From Lawsonibacter sp. (GTDB taxonomy: Bacteria > Bacillota > Clostridia > Oscillospirales > Oscillospiraceae): 64,000 nt of DNA. Both the position numbers and the translations under genes were made by a program. The stretch is taken from NCBI GenBank assembly GCA_050943895.1, contig JBMNQA010000008.1, forward strand, positions 26,351-90,350, read 5' to 3'. Below, piece by piece: positions 10,653 through 62,860 of the stretch. Under the pieces are notes generated by a model. That model had not been told where the DNA came from and ran no database searches. It was given only the letters and a program-made list of their open reading frames with translations. The stretch's first letter is position 1; the number at the start of each line of letters is the position of its first letter.

Positions 10653-10942
10653 GTGTGGTATAATAGTTATAAAAAAGTATACGGCTAGGAGAAAAAACTT
10701 TAAAATTTGGGACAGCTTGAAGGAGGCCATTTGAAGAGCGTTATTAGGGGATGTAGAATTTGGGAAACAGAGACAAACAGGAAAGAAATAGTAGGCAAAT
10801 ATTATCTAAGCAATAAACGTATTTGTAAGTTATTTGCTTCAAACAAAGTCTACGCAATATTATAAAAAAGCAAATAATTGACAATAATTAAAAAATATGA
10901 TTGAATTGAAATGTAAAATTTTAATAAAAGCGGAGTGTACAT

Positions 10943-11641
10943 ATGCTAGAATATAAAAGTTTAAATGAACTTGTATATGAAGAAATAAAAAAGAGGATCG
11001 TTACGCGTTATTATCAGCCAGGAGAACGGCTTGACGTAGATCAAATTGCATCTGAATTTCAAGTAAGTCGGACTCCAATTACAAATTCTTTAAAAGCTCT
11101 TGAACGAGATGGATATGTTACCATTATACAAAGAAGTGGTACTTATGTAAGAAAATACTCGAAAGAAGAAATTGAAGCGTTGTTCGATTTTCGAGCAGCG
11201 CTAGAAGAAGTTGTCGTGAGTAAGGCCATTAAAAATGCAGATCCGATAAATTTGAAGCGATTTATCAATAGTTTTGAAGGCTGCATCAAAAATTTAAGTA
11301 TAGATTCTTTGGCGGATAAAATGAAATATTTTGATGAAATGCAGTCAGATTTTCATAGTTATTTGTGGAAGTTATGTCCAACTATAATTTATAACGAGAC
11401 GCAAAATGTTATGCTTTTAACCAGACAAATTACGGCTCGTCATATTAATTTTTACATCCATAGTCCTTTTGCTCTTGAATTTGCAAAAAATGAAATTAAT
11501 GTTCATATTGATATTGCTCGCGCAATTCTGAACAAAGACGAAGAAAAGGCTAGAGCAAGTATTCGATCTGATATTCTTGGGAGTAAAGAAGATATTTTAG
11601 CGCATTTTGAAGAAATTGAGGCAACTGAAAATTCATTTTAA
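10943..11641 (+). CDS. GntR-family regulator with FCD-type C-terminal domain (AT-rich)
   Basis: SLNELVYEEIKKRI..YQPGERL...EFQVSRTPI..L..DGYV; C-terminal H.DIARAI. Confidence 0.9.
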   Translation: MLEYKSLNELVYEEIKKRIVTRYYQPGERLDVDQIASEFQVSRTPITNSLKALERDGYVTIIQRSGTYVRKYSKEEIEALFDFRAALEEVVVSKAIKNADPINLKRFINSFEGCIKNLSIDSLADKMKYFDEMQSDFHSYLWKLCPTIIYNETQNVMLLTRQITARHINFYIHSPFALEFAKNEINVHIDIARAILNKDEEKARASIRSDILGSKEDILAHFEEIEATENSF

Positions 11642-11832
11642 ATAGTCATTGTGTTAATGCATAAAAAAGTTTGTATTTTTTGTCTAATTATTAGGATTAA
11701 AACTCGAAAATATTTGGTGTTATACTAAATCTAAAATTAAAGGTAGGTAAGTTTAGGACTTTTTTATTTTATTTAATCTAAAATATCAGATTTAAAATCT
11801 AAAACCAAATATAAGGAAGGGGAATGTAACAA

Positions 11833-13170
11833 ATGGAAGAAAAAGAGAGTCGTGTATTTTATAAGGCGTTATCCAAAAAATATAAGCGGATTTCGCATGG
11901 AGAAGGTGTGTTTCTTTTTGACGAGGATGGAAAACGGTATTTGGATTTTGGGGCAGGTTTGGCGGTCACAAATATCGGAAACTCAGTTAAAGAAGTTATT
12001 GATGCCATTACAGACCAGGCTCAGAAGATTACTTATTTAAATGGTGGTGCCTTTACCAGTGACGTCCGAGAAGAGTTAGCCAGCCGTATGATAAGCATTG
12101 CCCCCAATGGGATGGATAAAGTGTTTTTCTGTAGTGGGGGCTCCGAAGCAGTTGAGTCAATGGCGAAAATTGCTAGACAGTATCAAATTGAATGTGGACG
12201 CCCGAGTAAATACAAAATTATTACAAGATGGCAGAGTTATCACGGGAATACATTTGGGACGTTATCTTTGGGCGGAAGACCTTCCTGGCGTGGCTGCTAT
12301 GAAGATTTCCTGTTACATATGCCTCACATTGCTCAGTGCAACTGTTATAGGTGTCCCTATGGATTAGAGTGCGAGCATTGTAATTTGCCATGCGCAGAGG
12401 AATTGGAACGAGTCATTAAGTATGAAGGGGCAGATACAGTTGCTGCGTTTATGATTGAACCGATTACTGGAACCACTGCAACTGCGACTGTCCCTCCGGT
12501 CGCATACATGAAACGGATTCGGGAAATTTGTGATCAATATGATATTTTGTTATGTTGTGATGAAGTAATTACTGGTCTAGGCAGAACAGGAAAAGCCTTT
12601 GCAGTTGATCATTTTGATATTGTGCCAGACCTTATTTCCGTAGCAAAAGGGCTTGGTGGTGGCTATGTGCCAATTGGCGCAGTATTAGCAAGCAAAAAAG
12701 TAGTAGATGCAATTGCCAACGGCTCCGGGGTTTTGGAACATAGTTATACTTTTGCAGGAATGCCCATTGCCTGCGCGGGAGCCAATGCAGTTTTGAAATA
12801 CATCATTGAAAACAATATCATTCAAAAAGCAGAAGAAAATGGAAAGCTTTTGCTGAAAAAGTTACAGGATAAACTGGGCAATATTCCTGCAGTGGGCGAT
12901 ATTCGTGGCAAGGGGATGCTTCTTGGGGTAGAGTTGGTTGCGGATCGGGAGACTAAAAAGCCCTTTGACCCCAAGGAGAATATTTCGGGGAAAATTGCAT
13001 CGTACTGCCTGGAACACGGAGTAATTGTTCTATCTGGGGTTGTTGGAACTGCAGATGGTGTTGCGGGAGAAGCTCTTCAAATTTCACCTCCGCTAACCAT
13101 TACGCCTGAGGAGATGGACTTTGCGGTTGATGTCTTGAGGGAGTCTATTGTCCACGTAACACAGGCTTAA
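11833..13170 (+). CDS. PLP-dependent class III aminotransferase (omega/beta-amino acid type, YodT-like)
   Basis: SGGSEAVE, RWQSYHGNT, EPITG, DEVITGLGRTG, PLP lysine in SVAKGLGGG, HSYTF. Confidence 0.92.
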   Translation: MEEKESRVFYKALSKKYKRISHGEGVFLFDEDGKRYLDFGAGLAVTNIGNSVKEVIDAITDQAQKITYLNGGAFTSDVREELASRMISIAPNGMDKVFFCSGGSEAVESMAKIARQYQIECGRPSKYKIITRWQSYHGNTFGTLSLGGRPSWRGCYEDFLLHMPHIAQCNCYRCPYGLECEHCNLPCAEELERVIKYEGADTVAAFMIEPITGTTATATVPPVAYMKRIREICDQYDILLCCDEVITGLGRTGKAFAVDHFDIVPDLISVAKGLGGGYVPIGAVLASKKVVDAIANGSGVLEHSYTFAGMPIACAGANAVLKYIIENNIIQKAEENGKLLLKKLQDKLGNIPAVGDIRGKGMLLGVELVADRETKKPFDPKENISGKIASYCLEHGVIVLSGVVGTADGVAGEALQISPPLTITPEEMDFAVDVLRESIVHVTQA

Positions 13171-13189
13171 TGGGCAAGGGAGGATGGAT

Positions 13190-13693
13190 ATGAAGCGCTA
13201 TCTACAGAAGTTTGACTTGTGGCTCGGAAGCATTATTTTAATCTTGATGGTTTTTGTGGTTGTCTTACAGGTGGTGTTTCGTTACTTTGGTCATCCATTG
13301 TCTTGGCCAGAAGAGGTGGCTCGATGGACAATGATCTGGGTTACATTTGCTGGAGCAAGTTACAGTTTTCGAAACGGTGGACTTATTCGAGTTGAATTCT
13401 TTGTAACAAAGTTCTTTCCTAAGAAAGTGCAAATGGTTATCAATGCAATCAATATGGTTTTAATGATGGCTTTTTTTGGACTTTTAGGATATTCCTCATT
13501 CTGTTATATGATGCTAACAGTACGGAAACATCAAGTTTATAACGTTACAAGAATGCCTTATGCGATTGTGATAAGTGCGCTGATTTTGGGCAGCATTTTG
13601 TGCATTATTTTTGCGGCGAAACAACTTATACAACTTGTTTTGGCATACCGCCAAAGTGATAATTTAAAACAACAGGGGGAGGGAACAGAATGA
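13190..13693 (+). CDS. dctQ: TRAP transporter small permease (DctQ)
   Basis: LQVVFRY...SWPEEVARWTMIWVTFAGA; 4 TM segments. Confidence 0.92.
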   Translation: MKRYLQKFDLWLGSIILILMVFVVVLQVVFRYFGHPLSWPEEVARWTMIWVTFAGASYSFRNGGLIRVEFFVTKFFPKKVQMVINAINMVLMMAFFGLLGYSSFCYMMLTVRKHQVYNVTRMPYAIVISALILGSILCIIFAAKQLIQLVLAYRQSDNLKQQGEGTE

Positions 13694-14976
13694 CGCCGCT
13701 TAATACAACAATTTTGCTGTTTGGAATGCTCTTATTCCTCTTGTTTTTCAATGCACCTCTAATTGTAGCCATTGGCCTTCCAACCGCTCTTGTTATGCTT
13801 ATGAGTGGGATGAATGTGGCTACATTTGGACAAAGAATGTTCGTGGCAGTGGACTCTTTTACTATGATGGCAATTCCGTTTTTTATGCTGGCAGGCAAAC
13901 TAATGGAAGTTGGCGGAATGTCAAAACGTATAGTGCGTTTTGCAAATAGCTTGGTTGGGTGGATGCAGGGTGGATTAGCTCATGTTGTAGTAGTTGCCTG
14001 TGCGTTTTTTGGCGCATTATCTGGCTCTGCGGCAGCAACCTGTGCAGCAATCGGATCGACGCTAATTCCAGATATGAAAAAAGAAGGATATCCTTCTGAT
14101 TTTGTTGCGGGTCTAACCGCAGTATCTGGAGGCTTGGGCGTAATTATTCCTCCAAGCATTACTATGATTATGTATGGCGTTTGTTCCGGGACTTCCATTG
14201 GAAAGCTGTTTGTAGCAGGGTTTGTTCCTGGTATTTTATTGGCAATTTTTTTAATGGTTACAGCACGTATTGAGGCTGGAAAACGAAAGATTCAACAAAC
14301 CTCAACCTTCAATACGAAAGAACTAGTTGTTAGCTTTTTGGATGCAATCCCAGCATTGCTTGTCCCAATTATCATTTTGGGCGGAATTTATGGGGGATTT
14401 TTTTCTCCCACAGAAGCCGGAGCGGTTGCATGTGTCTATGGTTTCCTTATAGCAATTTTTTGGTATAGAGAAGTCAACAAAGAAAATATTGGCGAAGTAA
14501 TGGGTGGGGCATTAACAAATACCGTTTTAGTATTAATTATTGTAAGCGCATCTGGAGCCTTTAGCTGGTTGTTGACAAGTAATGGTGTTGCATCTCTTCT
14601 CGGTGATGCAGTTGGAAGCATTGCCACCAATAAATTTGTCTTTTTACTTATATCAAATTTAATTTTCTTGTTTGTGGGATGTTTTATTGAATCTGTAGCT
14701 GGAATTTTGATTGTAACTCCAATTCTGCTTCCACAAGCAGAGGCTCTGGGGATAGACCCGGTACACTATGGAATTATTATGGTTGTAAATTTGGCGCTGG
14801 GACTTTGTACTCCTCCAGTGGGAGAAAACCAGTATATTGCTGCTGCAATTGCGGAGATCCCGTTTGAAAAAGAGTTTAAAGCATCTGTTCCGTTTTTAAT
14901 TGCCAATTTTGCAGCGCTTATCGTCATTACATATGTGCCGCAACTGTCTCTGTGGCTTCCGTCTTTGCTGGAGTAA
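13690..14976 (+). CDS. dctM: TRAP transporter large permease (DctM)
   Basis: MAIPFFMLAGKLM, FFGALSGSAAA, IIPPSI, PTEAGAVA, GLCTPPVG. Confidence 0.95.
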   Translation: MTPLNTTILLFGMLLFLLFFNAPLIVAIGLPTALVMLMSGMNVATFGQRMFVAVDSFTMMAIPFFMLAGKLMEVGGMSKRIVRFANSLVGWMQGGLAHVVVVACAFFGALSGSAAATCAAIGSTLIPDMKKEGYPSDFVAGLTAVSGGLGVIIPPSITMIMYGVCSGTSIGKLFVAGFVPGILLAIFLMVTARIEAGKRKIQQTSTFNTKELVVSFLDAIPALLVPIIILGGIYGGFFSPTEAGAVACVYGFLIAIFWYREVNKENIGEVMGGALTNTVLVLIIVSASGAFSWLLTSNGVASLLGDAVGSIATNKFVFLLISNLIFLFVGCFIESVAGILIVTPILLPQAEALGIDPVHYGIIMVVNLALGLCTPPVGENQYIAAAIAEIPFEKEFKASVPFLIANFAALIVITYVPQLSLWLPSLLE

Positions 14977-15026
14977 GGTAAGATATTGAGTCTAAACAAT
15001 ATTGTAATGTTTGAAGGAGGATAACA

Positions 15027-16004
15027 ATGAAAAAGGCAATAAGTATTATGCTGGCGTGTGCAATGATTATTTTGTGCTTTTCCGGTTGTGGTTCAAATAC
15101 GGATACAAAAGGAAAAGACGGAAGTTCTGGCAGCAACGATTCCGACTATAGCTATCATTGGAAATTAGCAACTACTGAGACTGCCGACTATTATATGGCA
15201 GTGTTAGCGCAAGATTTTATTGACTTGGTTAACGAGCGCACCAACGGAAAAGTCACAGGTGAAGTGTTTGCGTCAGGGCAATTGGGTGGATTAGTGGATG
15301 CATTGGAAGGATTGGAATTAGGAACAGTAGATATTGTAATGGATGGTTTTAGTTCTTTGGGAGAAGTCAACCCCATTTTTGATGCATGGGGCATGCCCTA
15401 TCTTTATGACAGCAGAGAACATAGATATAATTTCTGGGACAATTATTTTGATGAGTGTGCAGAACTTGTTGCAGATGAAGCCAACATCCGAATGGTGACT
15501 GTATTGGATGGGTTGAACCGAAATCTATGTACAACGCAACCAGTGTATGAACTAAAGGATCTAAAAGGATTAAAAATTCGTGTACCAACCATCACAACGT
15601 ACATGAGGGTTTGGGAGTGCTTTGGAACGGCCCCAGTTCCCATGGCTCTGTCGGAAGTGTATACATCAATTCAAAACAATGTAGTCCAAGGTCAAGAGAA
15701 TGACATTATGCTTACTATGAGCATGAACTTTTATGAAGTGGCACCATATGCAATAATGACAGAGCATGTTCCATATGAAGGTTCACTGTTTTTCAATGAA
15801 GAAACATTCCAATCTTATCCAGAAGAGTTACAGCAAATTATTTTGGATGTGGGAAAAGAAATCACTGAAAAGAGCCGAACTGTAATCGCAGCTGAGGAAG
15901 AAAAGACTCTTCAGGAGATGGAGGATATGGGTGTGACAATCATCCGGCCTGATTTGGAAGAGTTCAAAGCAGCTACTGCAGTTACCCAAAGCACAGATAC
16001 TTAA
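15027..16004 (+). CDS. dctP: TRAP substrate-binding lipoprotein (DctP), C-terminus possibly truncated
   Basis: Lipobox FSGC, SGQLGG, LKGLKIRVP (carboxylate-binding Arg), EVYTSIQNNVVQGQEN. Overlaps the convergent HD gene by 23 nt. Confidence 0.9.
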   Translation: MKKAISIMLACAMIILCFSGCGSNTDTKGKDGSSGSNDSDYSYHWKLATTETADYYMAVLAQDFIDLVNERTNGKVTGEVFASGQLGGLVDALEGLELGTVDIVMDGFSSLGEVNPIFDAWGMPYLYDSREHRYNFWDNYFDECAELVADEANIRMVTVLDGLNRNLCTTQPVYELKDLKGLKIRVPTITTYMRVWECFGTAPVPMALSEVYTSIQNNVVQGQENDIMLTMSMNFYEVAPYAIMTEHVPYEGSLFFNEETFQSYPEELQQIILDVGKEITEKSRTVIAAEEEKTLQEMEDMGVTIIRPDLEEFKAATAVTQSTDT

Positions 16005-34616: not shown

Positions 34617-34628
34617 TGAATAAAAAGC

Positions 34629-34659
34629 GAGGGCCACTGCGAACGTTGCAGTGGCCCTC
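34629..34659. terminator. Hairpin between the convergent M23 and flavodoxin-like genes
   Basis: GAGGGCCACTGC-N7-GCAGTGGCCCTC, with an A run on the left (U tract for the minus strand). Confidence 0.75.
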
Positions 34660-34667
34660 AGTTCTTG

Positions 34668-35735
34668 TTATTTGGTGTTTGCCCCCATGACCTGAGCGAT
34701 GTGAGAGGCAAAGACGTCCAGACGTTCTTGAATGCCTGGAAGTGCCAGAGCCTGGCCGGGGTCATTGGCCGTTTCCAGCAAAGCAAAATGGCTGGGAAGG
34801 TGAAAGGATTTATTCATGTTGAGTGCAGCGATTAGCTGACGGGCTACAATATCGCCACCCGAGTAGCCTGAGACCACAATGGCAAAAAGCGCCTTATCAT
34901 AAAAACGGGTTTGCCGAAACAAGGCGGTGAGCCGGTTGATACAGGCAGTCAGGTTCGCGGAAAGTGCATCGTTGTAATTGGGACACAGCATCACCAGGGC
35001 ATCAGCGGAGCGAACGGCAGGATAGACCTCTTCTTGCATTACGCCGCCATAGAAACAACCTCCCCGCTCTCCAAAATGGAGGCACATGGTGTAAGGGCAG
35101 CCGGAGCAGTCGGACAGTGTGCCGTTGCGCAGGCCAATTTCTTGACAGGTTACGCCATTTCCCAGCCTCTGGCGCACCTGATCCCACAGGGCCATGGTGT
35201 TGGAGGTGTGGTGGCTGGAGGCATGAAGAACCACTAACTTTGGCTGTGCCCGGCGGGGAAAGGGAGGCCCCTCCAACCGCACGATTAGATCCTGGGCCGC
35301 CCGGCGGTATGCTTCAATGCAGGAGATGCCCTGAACCTGAGCTTGAATTCGAAAGGTAGAAAGATCTCCGGTGCCTTCTACCAGAGGCCGTCCCAAGAAG
35401 GTGCAGCCGGCCAAATTTGCGGCCAACACCAATTCGGTGGCCGCTGACTTGGTGTATAGAGGAGAGACTCCGTCCACCAGTAGGCCGGCGGTGCAGCCAT
35501 CTAATAGTCCCGGTTCTCGGCGCAGGCGGGAAAGCATCCGAGTGTATTCCAGATTAACCCCTGTTTCACCCAAAGAAAGGACAAAGAGAAGCGTATTCCC
35601 TGTTAGATTGGTCAAATCTTGAACACGAGCCACTGTACGAAAGTTACGACCTGCCAGCGCGCAACGTAACACATCGTCCACCCGAGCCTGCGCCACCTCT
35701 GGCTCCGGTGTGGGACGAATCAATACCAGTGCCAT
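34668..35735 (-). CDS. Tandem flavodoxin-like / iron-sulfur flavoprotein-like protein
   Basis: C-terminal domain has VVLHASSHHTSNT, CxxCx4Cx8C (CSGCPYTMC...C), ADALVMLCPNY and VVSGYSGGD. The N-terminal half resembles a degenerate flavodoxin fold. Confidence 0.75.
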   Translation of the reverse strand: MALVLIRPTPEPEVAQARVDDVLRCALAGRNFRTVARVQDLTNLTGNTLLFVLSLGETGVNLEYTRMLSRLRREPGLLDGCTAGLLVDGVSPLYTKSAATELVLAANLAGCTFLGRPLVEGTGDLSTFRIQAQVQGISCIEAYRRAAQDLIVRLEGPPFPRRAQPKLVVLHASSHHTSNTMALWDQVRQRLGNGVTCQEIGLRNGTLSDCSGCPYTMCLHFGERGGCFYGGVMQEEVYPAVRSADALVMLCPNYNDALSANLTACINRLTALFRQTRFYDKALFAIVVSGYSGGDIVARQLIAALNMNKSFHLPSHFALLETANDPGQALALPGIQERLDVFASHIAQVMGANTK

Positions 35736-35804
35736 TAAACTTCACCTTCCTGTGTATTCCGGAACCAAGCGAAGTAAATTCGTTCCAGATAGGGCTTCTT
35801 TCGG

Positions 35805-37046
35805 TCACAAAATTTCTTTTAAATGTTCGGCTGCTTCCTGAATGTGAGCGAAAAGAGGATCGGGAATTTTGGGAAGCAGTTCCGTTTGGATACCTGCTGG
35901 GGTGAAGCGGTTTTTGACCCCCATATATACGCCATCTAAAAATACAGAGCCACAGTGCCACTCCCCACGTAAAGTGAGCAGGAGGGACAGGGCGCCGGAA
36001 GACAGGGCTGGGGCTACATAGGGCTTAAATCCCAGTTCTCGCATTTGCAAGTTGGCGGTGACCGTACGTTGTGTCAGTTCCTGGGAGAGTGTCTCATCAT
36101 AATGTTCAATGGAGTTAGCAATAAACAGACCTGTGCCGTGGGGCCCAAAGGAGCGCCCTTCCGTCAAGAAAGAGGCCAGGCGTGCGTCCCGCTTAGCATA
36201 ATAGGCAGCTCGGGCATTCATTACTCCAAGGCCAAATCCCTGCACTTGCTCCGGGAGAAGCCCTTTGCCGTCCCATACTCCTGCGTCATCCAGGTTGCTC
36301 TCCAAATAGGCGGTTTTGGCCAGTGGATCCACTGGATCAGATACGGCTGCCCACAATCCCTGGAACTTAGATTGGCGGGCTAGGCGTGCGTAGTGCTTGA
36401 CAATGGCAGCATTTTGTTCAAACTGAGCCATACGCACATCTTTGATTGCCGACCCCACAGGAGGGATTCCTTTGGAGGCCACAAAGACGAATAGGTCACA
36501 GTCGAAGAGCTTCTCCGGTGGGATGACCTCTACCTCAGGAAAGGCGTCGTAGGCCCATGGCAAGGAAACCTGTCCCATCTCAAATTCCCATCGAGCGGTA
36601 ATCTGTTGACTGAGATCGCAGATGCCAATGGAAGAAATGACGTCTCCCCCCAGCAGTTTGAGTCCAGTGAGGAGGGTAGAGCCCACATCCCCAATGGCTA
36701 AAAGGTTCACTCGTTTTTTTCTGCTGTGGGCAGCAGGACGGGTAAGCCGTGCCTCCCAGCCGGGACGCCCTATATTGACTGCGGTTACACGGCCCTGGGC
36801 GATGGCCTGGTCCAGATAGAGATCCATAGACACTGCCGGCAGACGGGAGGCATCTAGAACTTCCAGCCCGTGAGGGCAAACAAGTTGACCCGGGTGTTCC
36901 ACGCGGAAGGAACCTCGGCCCAGCACAGGATCTCCGTCCACCAGAAAGAAGACTGGAACGTTGGGGACAGGCTGGGCGGGGGTAAGGTCCGGGCGTACTT
37001 GGAAAGAGGCGACAAAAGCCCCGGAGTGAGTATAGTAAAAAATCAT
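35805..37046 (-). CDS. LDH/MDH-fold NAD(P)-binding protein with N-terminal extension and non-canonical active site
   Basis: LLAIGDVG...GICD, DLFVFVAS, R...FEQNAAIVK, VSDPVD, GLGVMNARA, GPHG. Confidence 0.75.
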   Translation of the reverse strand: MIFYYTHSGAFVASFQVRPDLTPAQPVPNVPVFFLVDGDPVLGRGSFRVEHPGQLVCPHGLEVLDASRLPAVSMDLYLDQAIAQGRVTAVNIGRPGWEARLTRPAAHSRKKRVNLLAIGDVGSTLLTGLKLLGGDVISSIGICDLSQQITARWEFEMGQVSLPWAYDAFPEVEVIPPEKLFDCDLFVFVASKGIPPVGSAIKDVRMAQFEQNAAIVKHYARLARQSKFQGLWAAVSDPVDPLAKTAYLESNLDDAGVWDGKGLLPEQVQGFGLGVMNARAAYYAKRDARLASFLTEGRSFGPHGTGLFIANSIEHYDETLSQELTQRTVTANLQMRELGFKPYVAPALSSGALSLLLTLRGEWHCGSVFLDGVYMGVKNRFTPAGIQTELLPKIPDPLFAHIQEAAEHLKEIL

Positions 37047-37088
37047 GGCAGACACCTGCTTTCCGCTAGATTACAAAATTGTTGAAAA

Positions 37089-40000
37089 TTAAATGTGAGA
37101 AATAGTAGTATGCTGAGTGCGCAGGAGTTGTTCCAAGTCATTTTCCAGGTATACCGAGGCAGATAGATTTGGGTCATAGTGTAGACAAGTGCCCTTATCT
37201 GGACACAGTGGTAGAATGACTGCCTCTGGCAGTCGACTGAGGGTCAGGTTGCGACCGTAGAGGACACGGTATTCCTGTTCCAGGGTGGAGATGACATCCA
37301 GTGCACATTCCAAACAAGTCTCCGAAAGACGGAAAACCGCCTCCTGTCCACACTCTGCTTGGTAAGATGGGAGAGCATAGGGCAGGATATGGTTGATGCC
37401 AGGAAGCAATCCGGGTACCGGCGAAGCAGAGCGGCGTACGGTGTTGCCACCAATGAAGGGATAAAGGGTGGACTCCACAAACCACTGCCGCAGCCGGGGC
37501 AGAAAATAGACGCTGTCCACCGGCCGATCCCAGGAGGCCATTAAATCTTTCCCGTAACCGGAGAGGACACCTACCAACACCATTCGAATGGGGACCTGTT
37601 CTTGCCGCAGAATTGGGTCCAGTGCTCGCATGCGAAAGCCAGGGTGCATCAAATCATCCACTAGGATTACCGGCCGATTGAACGATTTGATGGTGCGAAT
37701 TTGGCAAGGGATAGGGGAATAGTAGGGGAAAGCCTCGATTGTGCTATCCATTAAATTAGGAGAATAGACTTTGTCGGTATGAATAGTTTTGGTCACTGTA
37801 TTTGGAACAATTTTCCCGCGGAGTAGTTTGCCAAAGGGAACACACATATTCTCCCCCAGCACCCGGGGGACGGTGGGGACAGCAGGAACGTTATTATAAG
37901 CAGTGATTTTCTCTAACAACCGATGGTGGATAATATCAGCGGATAGGGTGAGAACTAAGGAACCAGGGTAGAGGCCGGTTAGCGCCTGTTGTAGGCGTTG
38001 ATGGCTCCGACGAATGGCCGAGAGAACGCGGGGATTTCGGGAGAGAGGTTCCTGAATTGCGGTCTCCAGATTCTGAATGAGTACCGTGGGCGCATGCATA
38101 TCTACTTCACGAATGGGGCGGTCCCCCTCATAAGATAGAAATCCCATCCGAGCCAAGTTGTTCTCTAATTCGGACGATAGATGCCCGTCATGAGGAGCAA
38201 AGACAGCATAGACGTGCTCCTCTTCCAGTGCGCGGGAGAGAAGTTCACTCAGCAGCAGTTGACCGTAGTCTTTGTAGCGGTCGGAGGTGTCCGCGTACAG
38301 GGCAGTAATCAGAACTGTTTTTCCGGCTGCCCGTAGCCTTACCCGATTTGCCAGCTGAGGGTCGCCAAGAGCGGAAAACAGGTCTGATGTGGTAAGATAC
38401 CGGTAACTGGCAAAGCCCAGTAACTGGGACTGCGCCCCGGTCCGACGCAGCAATAGCACACGGTCGCTGCATCGGGAAATAGAATTGCGCACAATGTCTC
38501 GCTCTGGCAGCCCTGCCGTTAAATCCGCCAACAAGAGAGGGGCGGGTGCATCGTCCCACTGGAATTCCAGATCTCCGGCATAGAGCAGAGGTTTCTCCTG
38601 GGCGTCTCGAAGATAGAGTCCGTTTTGGTAAATAAAGTCCTGAATTACAGGGTCGATAAAGTTAGAAATATCCCGGTTTAGGTCCACATTTTCTCGGATG
38701 CGAGAAGAACTGATGTCTTCCAGGTGGGGAGGAAGTTGCAGACGAATCACATCTCCGGTGATGGGTAGGGTTTTCGGCAATTCCGCTTCTCCCACCCGGC
38801 GGAAAATGACGTGGTTCATCTGGTGGACAGAGAAAGGCTGAGGTGGAGCTTTGTAAGAAGAGGCATTGGCGACTACATCGCTGCCCGCCACCAGGTAAAC
38901 TTTTTGTCCAGGAAACAGATTCAAAAGGCGGTGCAGGTCCTGGGGGTTGGCAATGTTGACGGGAATGTCGTCGGGGAACAGGTGAACGTGAAAATCACCA
39001 GCCACCGACAAGTTGACAATCTGGCGCCGGATTAGGTGGGGTTGAGCCTTTTTGGACCAGGAGAACTCATCCACGGCCAGATATACCTCAAATCCTAAGT
39101 CACGGATGGCATGGACAATGCCTTTGTGAGAGAGGGTGAACGGGTCAAAAGTGCCTGGGAAAAAGGCGATCTTTCGGGGGCGTTCGAAAGTAAAGGGACC
39201 GTGGTCCAGTCGCCGCAGGGCAATAAAACGGTTGATGTGAGCCAGTGCTGCTGCTCGGTAGAAGAACGTTAGATGATCCTGACCGGGGGATTCCTGGATC
39301 AGAAAAAGTAGTTTGCGGTAACACAGGGCGAACAGTCGCCCCTTCTCTTCCATATCCAAGACGGAGGATTCAAAGAGCATTTTGCCGATAACCAGCAAAG
39401 CCTCTTGGCGCACTGCTTCTCGGTAGTGAGCCAGCCCCTGAAGCAGCAACCCCAGGAGTTCTTGTCGTCGATTTTCGTAAGCTGTATCCGACTCGGCAAA
39501 TCGGTCTCGGTAAGCTGGATAATGCTGTAAAAGTACCCCAATGGTGTTTAACGCTCCAGACACTGCCGAATCATTGGGAGAGCCTAGTAGCGATTTGAGC
39601 CAGAGCACCTGTTCATCCAGTTCGCTGGGGTGGAGGTAAAGCGCGGCCTCTCCTAGGTATTGGGGAATGTATTTGGAGATCTCGTACTGCCCCATCTCCA
39701 GACCTTTTCCTAATTCCACCACCACTTCATTGCGTTGATCCCTGCGCAGGATGGACAGCGTGCGAACCAAAGCGGAGCCGGCGGAGTGTCGTACCACGAC
39801 CCGCTCAGACACTTTAACTAAGTTGGAAAAATGGGTGGCAATATGAAGAATATGAGTTTTGACACCATGTTCTACTTGGTCCCGGAGCAATTCGACTCCT
39901 GCTACCTTCACAATCCAGGGAGTGGCATTTTTTAGGTTATCCAGAAACACCTCGCTGGTGATATCCAACTGATAGAGCATTTGCTCCATGGCATCTACGT

Positions 40001-41903
40001 TCTGCCCGGCGCGGCGCAATATTTTGCATTTGAGGAAGATGGTGGTCAGTTGGCTGTCTTGAACTTGTTGGGTAACCTCAACAATACGCTGCATGTGGGG
40101 GTGAGAACGGGGCAGAGAGCGCTCTGCTTCCCGGAAAAATTCCAATGCCGCAGTGATAAGACGCAGATCTCCAGAGAGAGCGAAATGGGTGGCAAAGGCA
40201 ATGAGCTTTTCCCGTACTTCCTCCCCATAATACTGGGGTGGCAGGTAACGAATGGCATCCAAAAGTGTGAAAGCGGTGTCGGGGGAAATCTGTTGGGGAT
40301 TCTCATAGTAATTTAAAAAGGCGCCCAAAAAACGGGGAATATCTCCTGGACGGGCGTGGGAGAGCATGGAATCTACCACTAACTTCAGGGTGTAACCAAT
40401 GTGGGAACGCTGTTGAGGGGTGGTCTTGTGGTCGGGAAAGATAATCATGTCTAGATACTGTCCCCACAGAGTAAAAGGAACTTCCTCTGCTGGATCGTTT
40501 TGCGCGTCTGCTGGGACCTCCTTACGGTACACCAGGTGGAAGCGGGCAATAAGCTGTCCAATCAGTCCTGCTGCCTGACGGCGGATATCACCTTCACGGT
40601 GGATCAGAAGTTCGTGAAAAAACGAGAGAGCTTGCGTCTTTTGCCGCACGGAGAGATAGGTAGAATACTCCCCAAATATATTGAGATAAGCGCGCAGCTG
40701 CTGCCAACTTTTGGCGGAACGGGCGGCTTCTATGATGTTGCCGAAACGCTGTTCGTTGGACAACATATGCATAAGACGCAGGTTGTGGTCCACGGAAAGT
40801 AAAATTAGACTGTCCAGAGTCTCTTCGGGGTTCATCAAAGCCGGGTCTTTTACCGGAGTTGGAGGTTGAGGCTGACCCACTAGGTCCACATCTACCCCAA
40901 GACGGCGCATGTAGTCCTCGAAATCGTGTAGTTTTCCATAGACGAACTCATATCGCCGGCGCTTTTTTCTATCCACATTGTCGAGTTTAGACAATATGAC
41001 TTGGAAAGATTGATCCAGGGGATAGAGGACGGTAATTTCATGCCCGTCTGCGTCCCGACTCTGTTTGGAACGAAAGTCGGCGTAAATGAGCAACAAAGAC
41101 TCCACCGAAAGGGATTCTAGTTCCAGATCCCAAGTGGAGTGGTTGGATGCAATGTGGCTAATGCCGTCCATCTTCCGTTCCAGCAACCACTGGTCGGTAT
41201 AGTAGTAATGGAGATAAGGAACTCGTTCTCCTGGACGGCAGCCAAATTTTCCTACATCATGGGCGGCAGCTGCCCCAGAAATAAGGGACAAGTCCACCTC
41301 CACACCAGCATCCACCAATCCCCGAGCTGCGGTCATAGCAATGAAATGAACTCCGGCAATATGGCTCAAAGTACGAAAGGGAGTGACTTCCAGTCCCAGG
41401 CGCATCAACTCATAAAGAAATTCGTCTCGCCAGGCGGTTAAAAAACGGTGGTACTCTTTGCCATGGTCGCACCCTTCATATTCTTCTCGGGATAGGAGTT
41501 GAAAATCCAGCATGGGATCAAAGGGAAGGGCGGCGCGCTCTTGGTCCAACAAAAGCTGAAGGACGGTCAAATAGACGATTGCTCCCTCTGCATAAGGCGC
41601 ACAATCTGTGGCAAAGCCGCCTCCGGGAAACATCCGATGGCAGATATAGCGATAGCAAAAGGGGAGCCAGCCGTCTTCCGGGGCATTGGGAGACAGAGGG
41701 GAGAGCAGAGGAGTACATACCTGAAGAACCTTTGTACAGGTCAATCGCTCTCGAACAGGAAGCAAAGTAGCAAGTCCCTCTTGCCAGGATTGATTTCGCA
41801 GCAATGCGGCCAATCCCTTTCGGCTGGATAAGGAGGGGAGATGGCGAAGAGACAGAGCCTCTGCCAGGGTGTGGTTAAACTGTCGAATCAGCTTATCATG
41901 CAT
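37089..41903 (-). CDS. ~1600-aa multidomain protein: HD hydrolase + helical region + HIGH-type nucleotidyltransferase + GNAT-like + PRTase-like
   Basis: HD: HIAGVH..AAHDVGK..H..NH..YAD. NTase: FFPGTFDPFTLSH, LVAGSD, ISSSRIRE. GNAT-like: LLGFASY...YGQLLLSELL...LARMGF. PRPP-loop-like VILVDDLMHPG. Confidence 0.8.
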   Translation of the reverse strand: MHDKLIRQFNHTLAEALSLRHLPSLSSRKGLAALLRNQSWQEGLATLLPVRERLTCTKVLQVCTPLLSPLSPNAPEDGWLPFCYRYICHRMFPGGGFATDCAPYAEGAIVYLTVLQLLLDQERAALPFDPMLDFQLLSREEYEGCDHGKEYHRFLTAWRDEFLYELMRLGLEVTPFRTLSHIAGVHFIAMTAARGLVDAGVEVDLSLISGAAAAHDVGKFGCRPGERVPYLHYYYTDQWLLERKMDGISHIASNHSTWDLELESLSVESLLLIYADFRSKQSRDADGHEITVLYPLDQSFQVILSKLDNVDRKKRRRYEFVYGKLHDFEDYMRRLGVDVDLVGQPQPPTPVKDPALMNPEETLDSLILLSVDHNLRLMHMLSNEQRFGNIIEAARSAKSWQQLRAYLNIFGEYSTYLSVRQKTQALSFFHELLIHREGDIRRQAAGLIGQLIARFHLVYRKEVPADAQNDPAEEVPFTLWGQYLDMIIFPDHKTTPQQRSHIGYTLKLVVDSMLSHARPGDIPRFLGAFLNYYENPQQISPDTAFTLLDAIRYLPPQYYGEEVREKLIAFATHFALSGDLRLITAALEFFREAERSLPRSHPHMQRIVEVTQQVQDSQLTTIFLKCKILRRAGQNVDAMEQMLYQLDITSEVFLDNLKNATPWIVKVAGVELLRDQVEHGVKTHILHIATHFSNLVKVSERVVVRHSAGSALVRTLSILRRDQRNEVVVELGKGLEMGQYEISKYIPQYLGEAALYLHPSELDEQVLWLKSLLGSPNDSAVSGALNTIGVLLQHYPAYRDRFAESDTAYENRRQELLGLLLQGLAHYREAVRQEALLVIGKMLFESSVLDMEEKGRLFALCYRKLLFLIQESPGQDHLTFFYRAAALAHINRFIALRRLDHGPFTFERPRKIAFFPGTFDPFTLSHKGIVHAIRDLGFEVYLAVDEFSWSKKAQPHLIRRQIVNLSVAGDFHVHLFPDDIPVNIANPQDLHRLLNLFPGQKVYLVAGSDVVANASSYKAPPQPFSVHQMNHVIFRRVGEAELPKTLPITGDVIRLQLPPHLEDISSSRIRENVDLNRDISNFIDPVIQDFIYQNGLYLRDAQEKPLLYAGDLEFQWDDAPAPLLLADLTAGLPERDIVRNSISRCSDRVLLLRRTGAQSQLLGFASYRYLTTSDLFSALGDPQLANRVRLRAAGKTVLITALYADTSDRYKDYGQLLLSELLSRALEEEHVYAVFAPHDGHLSSELENNLARMGFLSYEGDRPIREVDMHAPTVLIQNLETAIQEPLSRNPRVLSAIRRSHQRLQQALTGLYPGSLVLTLSADIIHHRLLEKITAYNNVPAVPTVPRVLGENMCVPFGKLLRGKIVPNTVTKTIHTDKVYSPNLMDSTIEAFPYYSPIPCQIRTIKSFNRPVILVDDLMHPGFRMRALDPILRQEQVPIRMVLVGVLSGYGKDLMASWDRPVDSVYFLPRLRQWFVESTLYPFIGGNTVRRSASPVPGLLPGINHILPYALPSYQAECGQEAVFRLSETCLECALDVISTLEQEYRVLYGRNLTLSRLPEAVILPLCPDKGTCLHYDPNLSASVYLENDLEQLLRTQHTTISHI

Positions 41904-42024
41904 AGCAGTACCGCCTTTCGCTCGCATAAAAGGTGAAGGGGCGCTGGGTAAGTTGTAATTTCTTGTCTCAACTATATCACATTTTCCGCCACCTGGAAAG
42001 ATAAGTGAAAAAATACGGAGCCCG

Positions 42025-42894
42025 TTAGGACTCCGTGCGCTGCTGCTGGCGACGATGATACACGTGGGAGATCACCGCCCCCAGCAGCAGAATATTTCCA
42101 CAAAAATAAAGCCACACCAAAAGCACAATCAATGAGGCGAGAGATCCGTATACCAAAGCATACCGGGAAGACATGTCAATAAACCAGGAAAACATCACGG
42201 AGCAACCCACCATAGCTGCAGCAGTGAGTAGGGCGGACAGGCGCAGTGTCCCGCGGGGAAGTCCGTTGCGCGGCATGCCCACCCGATAAACTGCCAGAAC
42301 CAGGAGCAGAACAAAGCAGAATAGGAGCAGATACCGAAGCCATAGCCACAACCGGGCCAAACTGCCCAGTGGAAACAGGGCACGGATTGCTTGAGGGAGG
42401 TTTTGCTCCAGAACGCTGAAAAACCAATCTCCAGTAAAAATAACTACTACCGAGAGATATACCGTCACCAAAAACAGGGCGGAGAGAATGACACTGGACA
42501 CAGTGCGCCGAAATCGGCGTGTCTGTTTGACCTGAAAAAGTACGTCCATGGTAAAAAATAGGGTCCGAAGTCCTGCAGATGCAGACACTAAAATGGTAAA
42601 TAAGCTAGCCCATAACAAGGCTGGGGACTGGATCCCAGCAATGTACATTAGGTAATCTTCTAATACGGACAGCGCCTCGGTGGGGAGAACTTGGTGTAGA
42701 GTCAATAAGGCTTGTTCCAAATCCATGTGAAACAAGCCGATAAAATAGTTGACACAGACTAAGAGGGGAAACAAAGTCAAGACCAAAAAGTAGGAAAGAG
42801 CAGCTGCCGAACGTGCTACTCCTACTCGGTGGTAAGTTTCTGCTGCGTCCAGGGCAAAGGAAACAATAGGAATCCGGCAAAGGCGCTCCAGCAC
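42025..42894 (-). CDS. YihY/BrkB family membrane protein
   Basis: AAALSYFLVLTLFPLL; C-terminal YALVYGSLASLIVLLVWLYF. Confidence 0.9.
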   Translation of the reverse strand: MLERLCRIPIVSFALDAAETYHRVGVARSAAALSYFLVLTLFPLLVCVNYFIGLFHMDLEQALLTLHQVLPTEALSVLEDYLMYIAGIQSPALLWASLFTILVSASAGLRTLFFTMDVLFQVKQTRRFRRTVSSVILSALFLVTVYLSVVVIFTGDWFFSVLEQNLPQAIRALFPLGSLARLWLWLRYLLLFCFVLLLVLAVYRVGMPRNGLPRGTLRLSALLTAAAMVGCSVMFSWFIDMSSRYALVYGSLASLIVLLVWLYFCGNILLLGAVISHVYHRRQQQRTES

Positions 42895-60343: not shown

Positions 60344-60419
60344 GCTGGTGTAGCTCAGCCGGTAGAGCAGCTGATTTGTAATCAGCAGGTCGGGGGTTCG
60401 AATCCGTCCACCAGCTCCA
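60344..60419 (+). tRNA. tRNA-Thr(TGT)
   Basis: 76-nt cloverleaf GCTGGTG...CACCAGC-T-CCA, anticodon loop TT-TGT-AA, GTTCGAATC T arm. Confidence 0.97.
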
Positions 60420-60432
60420 TAGTTTTTTACCT

Positions 60433-60517
60433 GGAGGAGTTCCCGAGTGGCCAAAGGGGGCAGACTGTAAATCTGTTGCGTTTCGCTTCGGTGGTTCGAA
60501 TCCACCCTCCTCCACCA
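60433..60517 (+). tRNA. tRNA-Tyr(GTA)
   Basis: 85 nt with a long variable arm, anticodon loop CT-GTA-AA, 3' ACCA. Confidence 0.97.
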
Positions 60518-62784: not shown

Positions 62785-62860
62785 GGACGATTAGCTCAGC
62801 TGGTAGAGCATCCGCTTGACGTGCGGGAGGTCACAGGTTCAAGTCCTGTATCGTCCACCA
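62785..62860 (+). tRNA. tRNA-Val(GAC)
   Basis: 76 nt GGACGAT...ATCGTCC-A-CCA, anticodon loop TT-GAC-GT. Confidence 0.95.

Follow-up and report, generated by a model that had tools for sequence, protein, structure and literature searches.

A candidate undescribed nucleotide-plus-redox module of three genes in Lawsonibacter sp. and other Clostridia

A 64,000-nt stretch of DNA from Lawsonibacter sp. (assembly GCA_050943895.1, contig JBMNQA010000008.1, positions 26,351 to 90,350 of the forward strand), referred to here as the window, contains three consecutive co-oriented genes on its minus strand, at 41903-37089, 37046-35805, and 35735-34668, which encode a giant multidomain protein, a dehydrogenase, and a flavoprotein respectively. 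They form one operon, whose products make up a self-contained nucleotide-plus-redox module with a wide distribution in Clostridia. Gene 1 (37089..41903, stop codon included) encodes 1,604 amino acids (aa) with an HD domain, a HEAT/ARM-type solenoid, a NadD/NMNAT-like nucleotidyltransferase (NTase), a GNAT fold, and a phosphoribosyltransferase-like (PRT-like) domain. Gene 2 (35805..37046, 413 aa) encodes a divergent member of the lactate/malate dehydrogenase (LDH/MDH) superfamily, referred to as LDH-like, which was recognized by an ortholog profile against PDB and weakly by Pfam Ldh_1_N, and gene 3 (34668..35735, 355 aa) encodes a two-domain protein that matches Pfam FMN_red. The reading that we favor, tentatively and at less than even probability, is that the module synthesizes and turns over a nucleotide similar to nicotinamide adenine dinucleotide (NAD), or an ADP-ribosyl nucleotide, which serves the two redox partners; in it, we infer every chemical step as well as the identity of the nucleotide.

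The giant open reading frame (ORF) spans 37089..41927, and its start was called at ATG 41903, downstream of a AAAGGCGG ribosome-binding site, which gives 1,604 aa with 100% identity to database entry P0001. A sigma-A-type promoter-like site lies 5' of the giant gene on the minus strand (41971..41999; TTTCCA, 17 nt, and an extended -10 element TG-n-TATAGT), and the same TTTCCA -35 and extended -10 pattern is also found 5' of orthologs in many loci, with sigma-A-type promoters in most. Further upstream, a terminator at 42015-42036 ends the BrkB gene. At the other end, a bidirectional intrinsic terminator (34628..34660, both strands; a stem of 13-14 bp with nine GC pairs, and T tracts on each strand) is common to the flavoprotein gene and the convergent M23 peptidase gene. 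An initial annotation of this DNA, made from the sequence alone, had described the three genes with intergenic gaps of 42 and 69 nt and a terminator after the last, all of which was confirmed to the base, and dedicated tools recovered every one of its domain assignments (HD, NadD-like NTase, GNAT fold, PRT-like, LDH-like, and Fe-S flavoprotein). Its view of the cluster as host-like in composition and remote from mobility genes was likewise upheld: the cluster has a GC content of 0.51-0.55, comparable to most of the window, its neighbors are housekeeping genes (BrkB, Gpr, AsnB, M23 and M16 peptidases, CBS, and RluD-like), and no mobility gene is found among them. A mobile element was considered for the module and rejected.

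The short 5' untranslated region of the giant gene (41904-41970) contains a GC-rich hairpin directly before the ribosome-binding site, with the form GCCGC...GGGGCGGC in Lawsonibacter-type loci and CCGGCCC...GGGCGG in Oscillibacter-type loci; its position is constant among orthologs, while its sequence is group-specific. An Rfam scan of the window revealed no riboswitch or known RNA leader, and matched three tRNAs only.

The giant protein represents a large family: clustering at 90% identity yields more than 7,400 clusters, and at 50% identity there are 934 representatives (320 with E < 1e-30). At least 569 species-level genomes contain a member. The family is found in Oscillospiraceae (Lawsonibacter, Flintibacter, Pseudoflavonifractor, Oscillibacter, Dysosmobacter, and Faecalispora), in Lachnospiraceae-type clostridia, and in a small number of Chloroflexi (Flexilinea). 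Sufficient downstream sequence was available for 74 loci, and 64 of these show the giant, LDH-like, and flavoprotein genes in this order, 14 of the 64 with unrelated inserts; the ten exceptions comprise two rearranged loci, two without the flavoprotein gene, and six without either partner, three of the latter belonging to other subfamilies described below. When we started reciprocally from the LDH-like gene in metagenomes, 65 of the 67 testable loci had the giant gene upstream, and the flavoprotein gene was downstream in 67 of 70. The module also persists at giant-protein identities as low as 33-35%, as in Caloramator sp. E03, Acidaminobacter hydrogenoformans, and copy 2 of Crassaminicella thermophila. 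As the order is kept in 64 of 74 loci and in lineages at 33-35% identity, the gene arrangement is far beyond chance expectation. The co-occurrence of the three genes across homolog neighborhoods, on which the initial annotation had in advance staked its proposal, therefore holds. No fourth conserved partner emerged from all-against-all ORF clustering in 81 loci, which returned three families only; an apparent fourth cluster proved to be antisense shadow ORFs within the giant gene and was discarded. Synteny with BrkB, Gpr, and M23 is limited to close relatives, and the module lies at different chromosomal sites in distant taxa only.

Metagenome-assembled genomes of Chloroflexi (loci L033-L035, Flexilinea, Anaerolineae-type) carry the complete module with giant proteins 56-65% identical to those of Oscillospiraceae, which suggests that the three-gene unit moved whole between phyla by horizontal transfer. 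Unrelated inserts lie within the module at L003:10217-11293, L007:10189-11211, ~10160-10790 in L052, L058, and L070, L073:10177-12000, L012:11480-12049, and L024:11486-12052, and encode an immunity-like protein of the SMI1/KNR4 (SUKH) type, a small secreted protein, a Dam-like methyltransferase, or a VanZ-like membrane protein. With such unrelated inserts in some genomes, the module evidently tolerates interruption without loss. Another insert, a TARG1/Poa1-like macro-domain gene of 147 aa (Pfam Macro, 23.6 bits with a cut-off of 22), is located between the LDH-like and flavoprotein genes at L007:12510-12950 (Flintibacter muris) and L002:6450-6890. It is possibly a weak pointer to ADP-ribose/NAD chemistry, or a chance insertion.

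The window sequence itself matched in DNA metagenomes only, and the orthologous locus of Flintibacter muris was taken for RNA evidence. Four mouse-gut metatranscriptomes cover the whole module at this locus, with contigs that cross every gene junction, two inserted genes included, and a depth that is about zero just 5' of the giant gene and drops 3' of the flavoprotein gene; the contigs are unstranded, and some DNA carry-over is possible. The macro-domain insert is co-transcribed with the LDH-like and flavoprotein genes in these metatranscriptomes. These observations fit a single transcription unit of the three genes that is expressed in vivo, and the conserved gene order (64/74 loci) and the metatranscriptome contigs together bear out the operon structure proposed in the initial annotation.

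Direct family scans of the giant protein are weak, with CTP_transf_like slightly under its cut-off and faint NadD models, and searching the whole proteins directly against PDB gave weak PPAT, LDH, and azoreductase matches only. We therefore rely on AlphaFold (AF2) models of the giant protein, built as two halves from alignments of 30 sequences, and on profiles of orthologs. The N-terminal half is modeled as all-helical with a predicted local distance difference test (pLDDT) score of 88. Its first part (residues 1-345; 40869..41903, minus strand) contains an HD domain of the metal-dependent phosphohydrolase type with the motif H...HD...H...H...D, formed by H186, H215-D216, H232, H255, and D276 (41067-41363, minus strand), residues that are invariant in 39 Oscillospiraceae-level orthologs and at least 80% conserved across 79 divergent family representatives. 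Pfam HD (PF01966) matches 20 of the 39 orthologs (best E 3e-5), the window protein itself scoring 14.8 bits with a gathering score of 22, and the HD part of NCBIfam NF045665 (DVU_1551-type) matches all 39 (best E 1.5e-7). The second part, of ~550 aa (about residues 350-900; 39204..40856, minus strand), is identified by AF2 and Foldseek as a HEAT/ARM-type alpha-solenoid, with paired helices throughout and a pLDDT mostly above 85, and among its Foldseek matches in PDB (E ~1e-4) are importins, beta-catenin, designed armadillo proteins, and the PP2A A subunit. The initial annotation had listed the other domains of the giant protein correctly and missed this solenoid, and its presence gives more weight to protein-docking models.

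One such model, which we consider unlikely though not negligible, takes the giant protein as a cofactor-loading or protein-modification machine, in which the solenoid would dock the LDH-like protein, the flavoprotein, or both, and the NMNAT-like, PRT-like, and HD domains would install, exchange, or remove on this partner a nucleotide-derived prosthetic group of the AMP, phosphoribosyl, or ADP-ribosyl type; the likeness to GlnE/GlnD, or to CitG/CitX/CitC of citrate lyase, would be one of logic and not of ancestry. About one third of the giant protein is indeed a high-confidence solenoid of a fold that is typically protein-binding, the linkage to the partner genes is reciprocal and extremely tight, with an LDH-like protein that is more conserved than the N-terminal half of the giant protein itself, and NTase-plus-HD pairs elsewhere attach and detach one group. 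The macro-domain gene within the operon in two genomes, being of a de-ADP-ribosylase type, would also fit. However, neither a carrier-protein gene nor a conserved acceptor motif was identified, the giants of one subfamily (subfamily B, see below) exist without LDH-like or flavoprotein neighbors, and, to our knowledge, HIGH-signature transferases of the NadD/NMNAT type target small-molecule phosphates or carboxylates and not protein side chains.

The C-terminal half of the giant protein was modeled with a pLDDT of 71 and comprises three domains. The first is a NadD/NMNAT-type (HIGH-signature) NTase at about residues 909-1104 (38592..39179, minus strand), with an (H/T)xGH-type signature FFPGTFDPFTLSHKG (residues 914-928; 39120-39164, minus strand), a motif DEFSWSKK (39048-39071, minus strand), and ISSSRIRE (residues 1064-1071; 38691-38714, minus strand), which is of the ISxxxxR (ISSTxIR) type. 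Among 25 diverse members, the D, P, F, L, and K of FFPGTFDPFTLSHKG are invariant, its S and H occur in 90% or more, and the signature Gly is Ser or Gly, while I, I, and R of ISSSRIRE are invariant. The C-terminal tail of the domain (...DP.IQ.FIY.NGLY) is also of the NadD type. The domain matches NCBIfam NadD models (E 1e-7) and, by Foldseek, NadD structures over ~200 aligned columns (E 1e-5), and its profile finds in PDB VPA0413 (1e-8), PfNaMNAT (7e-7), EfNadD (5e-6), human NMNAT1 (9e-6), and PPAT (6e-5).

The second domain, at about residues 1110-1281 (38061..38576, minus strand), was assigned a GNAT fold by Foldseek, with matches to AtaT, KacT, and GCN5 (E 1e-4 to 6e-4, template modeling score ~0.6) and also to viral GNATs. 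The acyl-CoA motif Q/R-x-x-G-x-G/A is not present in it, the equivalent stretch RYKDYGQLLL (1209-1218) being without the Gly pair, and the giant protein has no Pfam acetyltransferase match. The GNAT fold is probably structural or regulatory. The acylation step that the initial annotation had offered as a variant is doubtful, because the GNAT domain is the least conserved of all and lacks a conserved acyl-CoA motif.

The third domain (residues 1291-1604; 37092..38033, minus strand) is of alpha/beta type and PRT-like, with a motif VILVDDLMHPGFR in a strand-loop-helix setting (residues 1412-1424; 37632-37670, minus strand) that resembles the loop binding phosphoribosyl pyrophosphate (PRPP) in type I phosphoribosyltransferases. 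The loop has the form VILVDD..H.G.R, in which the second Asp of the DD pair is invariant, the first occurs in 90% or more, and the G..R is retained, with H-P-G-F-R in place of the usual T-G-x-T. Pfam Pribosyltran (PF00156) matches 15 of 40 orthologs, all under the cut-off (best E 0.005). Profile matches in PDB fall on the DD loop and include XPRT, PRPP synthetase (E 0.06), and HPRT (0.13), with a range of 0.06-1.3, and Foldseek against BFVD gave UMP synthase (2.9e-3), PRPP synthetase (4e-3), a PRT-domain protein (8.7e-3), APRT, and HGPRT, with a range up to 3e-2. The designed toroid proteins that were the top PDB profile matches of this domain were set aside as repeat artifacts.

Column conservation decreases from the NTase (0.92) through the HD domain (0.85), the PRT-like domain (~0.75), and the solenoid to the GNAT domain (0.43-0.58), and the whole family (79 representatives, 28-65% identity) retains the motifs of the HD, NTase, and PRT-like domains but shows almost no conserved residue in the GNAT domain (0.30-0.38). 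Judged by these residues, the HD, NadD/NMNAT-type, and PRPP-loop units on the solenoid look catalytically intact. This pattern bears on an improbable alternative, namely that the giant protein is a metabolite-sensing regulator whose NMNAT-like, GNAT, and PRT-like domains are ligand sensors that steer the partner oxidoreductases via the solenoid, with little or no catalysis. PRT-like domains do serve as PRPP sensors in regulators such as PurR and PyrR, and amino-acid-binding GNAT domains are known; a GNAT domain without conserved catalytic or CoA motifs would suit such a role, as would the distant member P0217 (locus L089), whose NTase signature residues are gone (SH to GQ, ISS to ITP). Nevertheless, at 28-65% identity no positions of the family are better conserved than the catalytic-type residues of its HD, NTase, and PRT-like domains, which argues for catalysis.

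The LDH-like protein scores ~15 bits with Pfam Ldh_1_N (cut-off 27), and the profile of its orthologs has an L-LDH, 4m1q, as its match in PDB (E 7e-6). The Rossmann AxGxxG motif AIGDVG (residues 117-122; 36681-36698, minus strand) and D144, the NAD-type Asp after beta-2 (within 36612-36626, minus strand), are invariant, and further motifs are KDVRM (36429-36443), GLGVMNARA (36207-36233), and FGPHG (36135-36149), all on the minus strand. R205, R279, and H303 are also invariant and were aligned, partly by eye from the HMMER output, to Arg109, Arg171, and His195 of LDH, and the residue aligned to LDH/MDH position 102 is Ile. An N-terminal extension of ~105 aa is little conserved and apparently absent in the Caloramator ortholog (331 vs. 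413 aa).

The flavoprotein matches FMN_red (PF03358) with E 1e-18 and 67.7 bits (gathering score 24) and, as an ortholog profile, the azoreductase YhdA in PDB (E 5e-3). It consists of the C-terminal FMN_red part, with a loop for the phosphate of flavin mononucleotide (FMN), LHASSHHTSNT (35196-35228, minus strand), and an extra N-terminal domain of ~160 aa. An internal duplication was considered and dropped, as hhalign found no similarity between the FMN_red half and the N-terminal 160 aa. Four cysteines, C210, C213, C218, and C227 (35055-35111, minus strand), are spaced CX2CX4CX8C and invariant in 30 orthologs.

The family is wider than the single gene set that the initial annotation had seen: the set itself stands, and subfamilies with an APH-type kinase or a PPDK_N dikinase have to be added. 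Giants with LDH-like and flavoprotein genes, including that of the window, constitute subfamily A. Those of subfamily B are without these neighbors and adjoin a kinase of the APH/choline-kinase type (308 aa), as in Crassaminicella thermophila copy 1 (L083:7060-12884) and P0217 (L089:8001-13776), two distant genomes whose APH-type kinases share 34% identity; C. thermophila holds two giant copies, one of each subfamily. Subfamily C consists of HD-less giants of 1,218-1,259 aa with a PPDK_N dikinase-type gene (859-874 aa) directly 5' of the giant gene in three loci (L087:699-8033, L088:1-4140, and L170:998-11735), and XdhC lies downstream in L087. In L170, true orthologs of the LDH-like (49.5% identity) and flavoprotein (45.5%) genes are located 5 kb upstream on the same strand, separated from the PPDK_N and giant genes by those for a LysR regulator, a 4HBT thioesterase, and a ferredoxin. 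A further giant form, of 1,739 aa and 25-38% identical, is immediately followed by an LDH-like gene. The LDH-like enzyme is therefore the constant companion of most giant forms.

The two kinases open another reading, also unlikely in our estimate, namely the nucleoside diphosphate (NDP) activation of a phosphorylated alcohol or 2-hydroxy acid, as in CDP-choline, CDP-glycerol, or F420 LPPG. The LDH-like enzyme would make or interconvert the hydroxyl compound, the APH-type or PPDK_N kinase of the sister subfamilies would phosphorylate it, the NMNAT-like domain would convert it to ADP-X for transfer to an acceptor, and the PRT-like domain would bind the phosphate-bearing moiety. Such a scheme would account for the choline-kinase-type kinase that adjoins subfamily B giants in two distant genomes and for a dikinase directly 5' of HD-less giants in three loci, and transferases of the PF01467 type do include choline-phosphate and glycerol-3-phosphate cytidylyltransferases. 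Against it, the NTase is nearer to NadD/NMNAT than to TagD or CCT, with no cytidylyltransferase among its PDB matches, the DD loop in the C-terminal domain is more typical of PRPP or ribose-5-phosphate binding, and subfamily A has neither a kinase gene nor an obvious transferase for the final step.

We find the synthesis and turnover of an NAD-like dinucleotide the most economical reading, because three nucleotide-handling domains keep catalytic-type residues and the transferase is specifically NMNAT-like. The PRT-like domain would form or hold a mononucleotide containing ribose-5-phosphate, which the NMNAT-like domain would join to AMP from ATP to give an NAD-like or ADP-ribosyl dinucleotide, and the HD domain may hydrolyze this dinucleotide or a side product for turnover or proofreading. 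The LDH/MDH-type dehydrogenase would then use the dinucleotide, possibly tightly bound, as a hydride carrier, with a 2-hydroxy or 2-oxo acid with a non-polar side chain as its putative substrate, and the predicted Fe-S flavoprotein may couple this step to low-potential electron transfer. That the cluster might synthesize, employ, and recycle an unusual dinucleotide, as proposed earlier, is a reasonable hypothesis drawn from domain content. A more specific and more doubtful version is that the module makes, loads, and recycles a previously unknown adenylylated ribonucleotide, either an NAD analog with another base or an ADP-ribosyl-type cofactor, which is specific to the dehydrogenase and flavoprotein pair in anaerobic Clostridia.

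Several results weigh against an NAD-like dinucleotide. No domain of the giant protein scores above the curated cut-off of a functionally defined family, and the PRT-like assignment is weak, consisting of several concordant, individually sub-significant matches; when a canonical PRTase was compared with this domain by hhalign, only 25 columns of the PRPP loop were aligned. The HEAT/ARM solenoid in the AF2 model suggests protein docking, which would be unneeded for small-molecule synthesis. In the LDH-like protein, Asn277 occupies the position of LDH Asp168 in at least 90% of the aligned orthologs. The kinase-paired sister subfamilies would be explained by activation of a phosphorylated alcohol no less well than by phosphoribosylation of a base. 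No NAD-regulator site or NAD-related riboswitch is recognizable upstream of the orthologs, and the macro-domain insert occurs in only two of more than 60 loci, where the other inserts are plainly unrelated.

The giant family occurs in abundant gut Oscillospiraceae and Lachnospiraceae and is transcribed in the mouse gut, yet carries placeholder names only, and its architecture ties three nucleotide-handling domains and a docking solenoid to a divergent dehydrogenase and a predicted Fe-S flavoprotein across deep divergence. Knowledge of the product could bring to light a new nucleotide cofactor, or else a new route of redox-enzyme maturation in strict anaerobes, and would correct many mis-annotations as 'NaMN adenylyltransferase' or 'cytidyltransferase.' If it is indeed a previously unknown adenylylated cofactor, the module would represent a new cofactor pathway, with sister subfamilies (kinase-linked and HD-less) making related compounds.

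Apart from the module, the window contains three tRNA genes, its sole Rfam matches (60344-60514 and 62785-62857), and a segment of low GC content (10900-16004; 0.37-0.43 vs. ~0.5 elsewhere) with genes for a GntR/FCD regulator, a class-III aminotransferase, and the TRAP transporter components DctQ, DctM, and DctP. This segment is possibly an uptake or catabolic island of horizontal origin.

As for known systems, database names of the giant protein are placeholders such as 'cytidyltransferase-related domain protein' and 'nicotinic acid mononucleotide adenylyltransferase,' and no published description of its architecture or of the gene set was found in the full-text literature. No characterized system matches the module in Rfam, PADLOC, PDB, or the searchable literature, nor did family, PDB, PADLOC, or literature searches assign the giant protein to a characterized enzyme, in line with the initial annotation. 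An anti-phage defense system was considered and rejected, as the three proteins have zero PADLOC-DB matches (E up to 0.01), the neighbors are housekeeping genes, and the chromosomal site of the module varies in distant taxa only.

With NadD/NMNAT (PF01467), the giant protein shares the fold, both signature motifs in the form T-x-S-H-K and ISSSRIRE, matches over the whole ~195-residue domain, and the C-terminal tail. It differs in that its NTase is embedded in a 1,604-aa chain, HxGH reads T-L-S-H, and the mononucleotide-side motifs are different, PPHK and SYTxDT on the substrate side of NadD being replaced by SWSKK and NIAN respectively. As it scores only 27-31 bits with the NadD equivalog models (TIGR00482 / PRK00071), whose cut-offs are 112-315, we do not file it as NadD. 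The source annotations name a nicotinic acid mononucleotide (NaMN) adenylyltransferase, and NadD models are the best family matches, but it is most improbable that the giant protein is simply the housekeeping NadD with accessory domains: besides the scores far under the equivalog cut-offs and the replaced motifs, C. thermophila has two copies, and the family, unlike the universal NadD, is confined to part of the Clostridia and a small number of Chloroflexi.

NadD-YqeK fusions (PRK07152), NadR, and NadM-Nudix likewise combine on one chain an NMNAT-type transferase with a nucleotide hydrolase (HD in NadD-YqeK) or a salvage activity. The NadD half of PRK07152 alone aligns to the giant protein (model positions 1-191 of 361), whose own HD domain is instead N-terminal, 600 residues from the NTase across the solenoid, and nearer to the DVU_1551-type HD than to YqeK; we know of no such fusion with HEAT, GNAT, or PRT-like domains or with these partner genes. 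DVU_1551 (NF045665) also consists of an NTase and an HD domain, the latter being the best family match for the HD domain of the giant protein, but its NTase is MobA-like and belongs to another superfamily, and the giant protein scores 16 bits with a cut-off of 315.

The two analogies drawn in the initial annotation did not survive. CitC has a GNAT fold and a HIGH-signature NTase on one chain, as in the giant protein, in which, however, the domain order is reversed (NTase, then GNAT) and the GNAT domain is little conserved; Citrate_ly_lig (PF08218) has no Pfam match in the giant protein at E up to 0.1, and no citrate lyase or acyl carrier protein genes lie near the three-gene cluster. GlnD combines a Pol-beta-type NTase with HD and ACT domains, whereas the NTase of the giant protein is of the HIGH/Rossmann type, a different superfamily, and Pfam and NCBIfam scans of the giant protein gave no ACT or GlnD model matches.

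The partner genes combine likeness and difference in the same way. Gene 2 shares with L-LDH/MDH the Rossmann motif, the NAD-type Asp, and putative equivalents of Arg109, Arg171, and His195, with L-LDH as the best PDB match, and departs from them by a 105-aa N-terminal extension, a 5-residue insertion in the active-site loop, Ile at position 102 (not Gln/Arg), and Asn for Asp168. With Isf and the NADPH-dependent FMN reductases (PF03358), gene 3 shares the FMN_red domain and a compact four-Cys motif near the FMN site, from which an Fe-S cluster is predicted; its Cys spacing is CX2CX4CX8C, while that of classical Isf is CX2CX2CX4-7C, and it has an extra N-terminal domain of 160 aa. The module as a whole is an undescribed combination of known enzyme folds.

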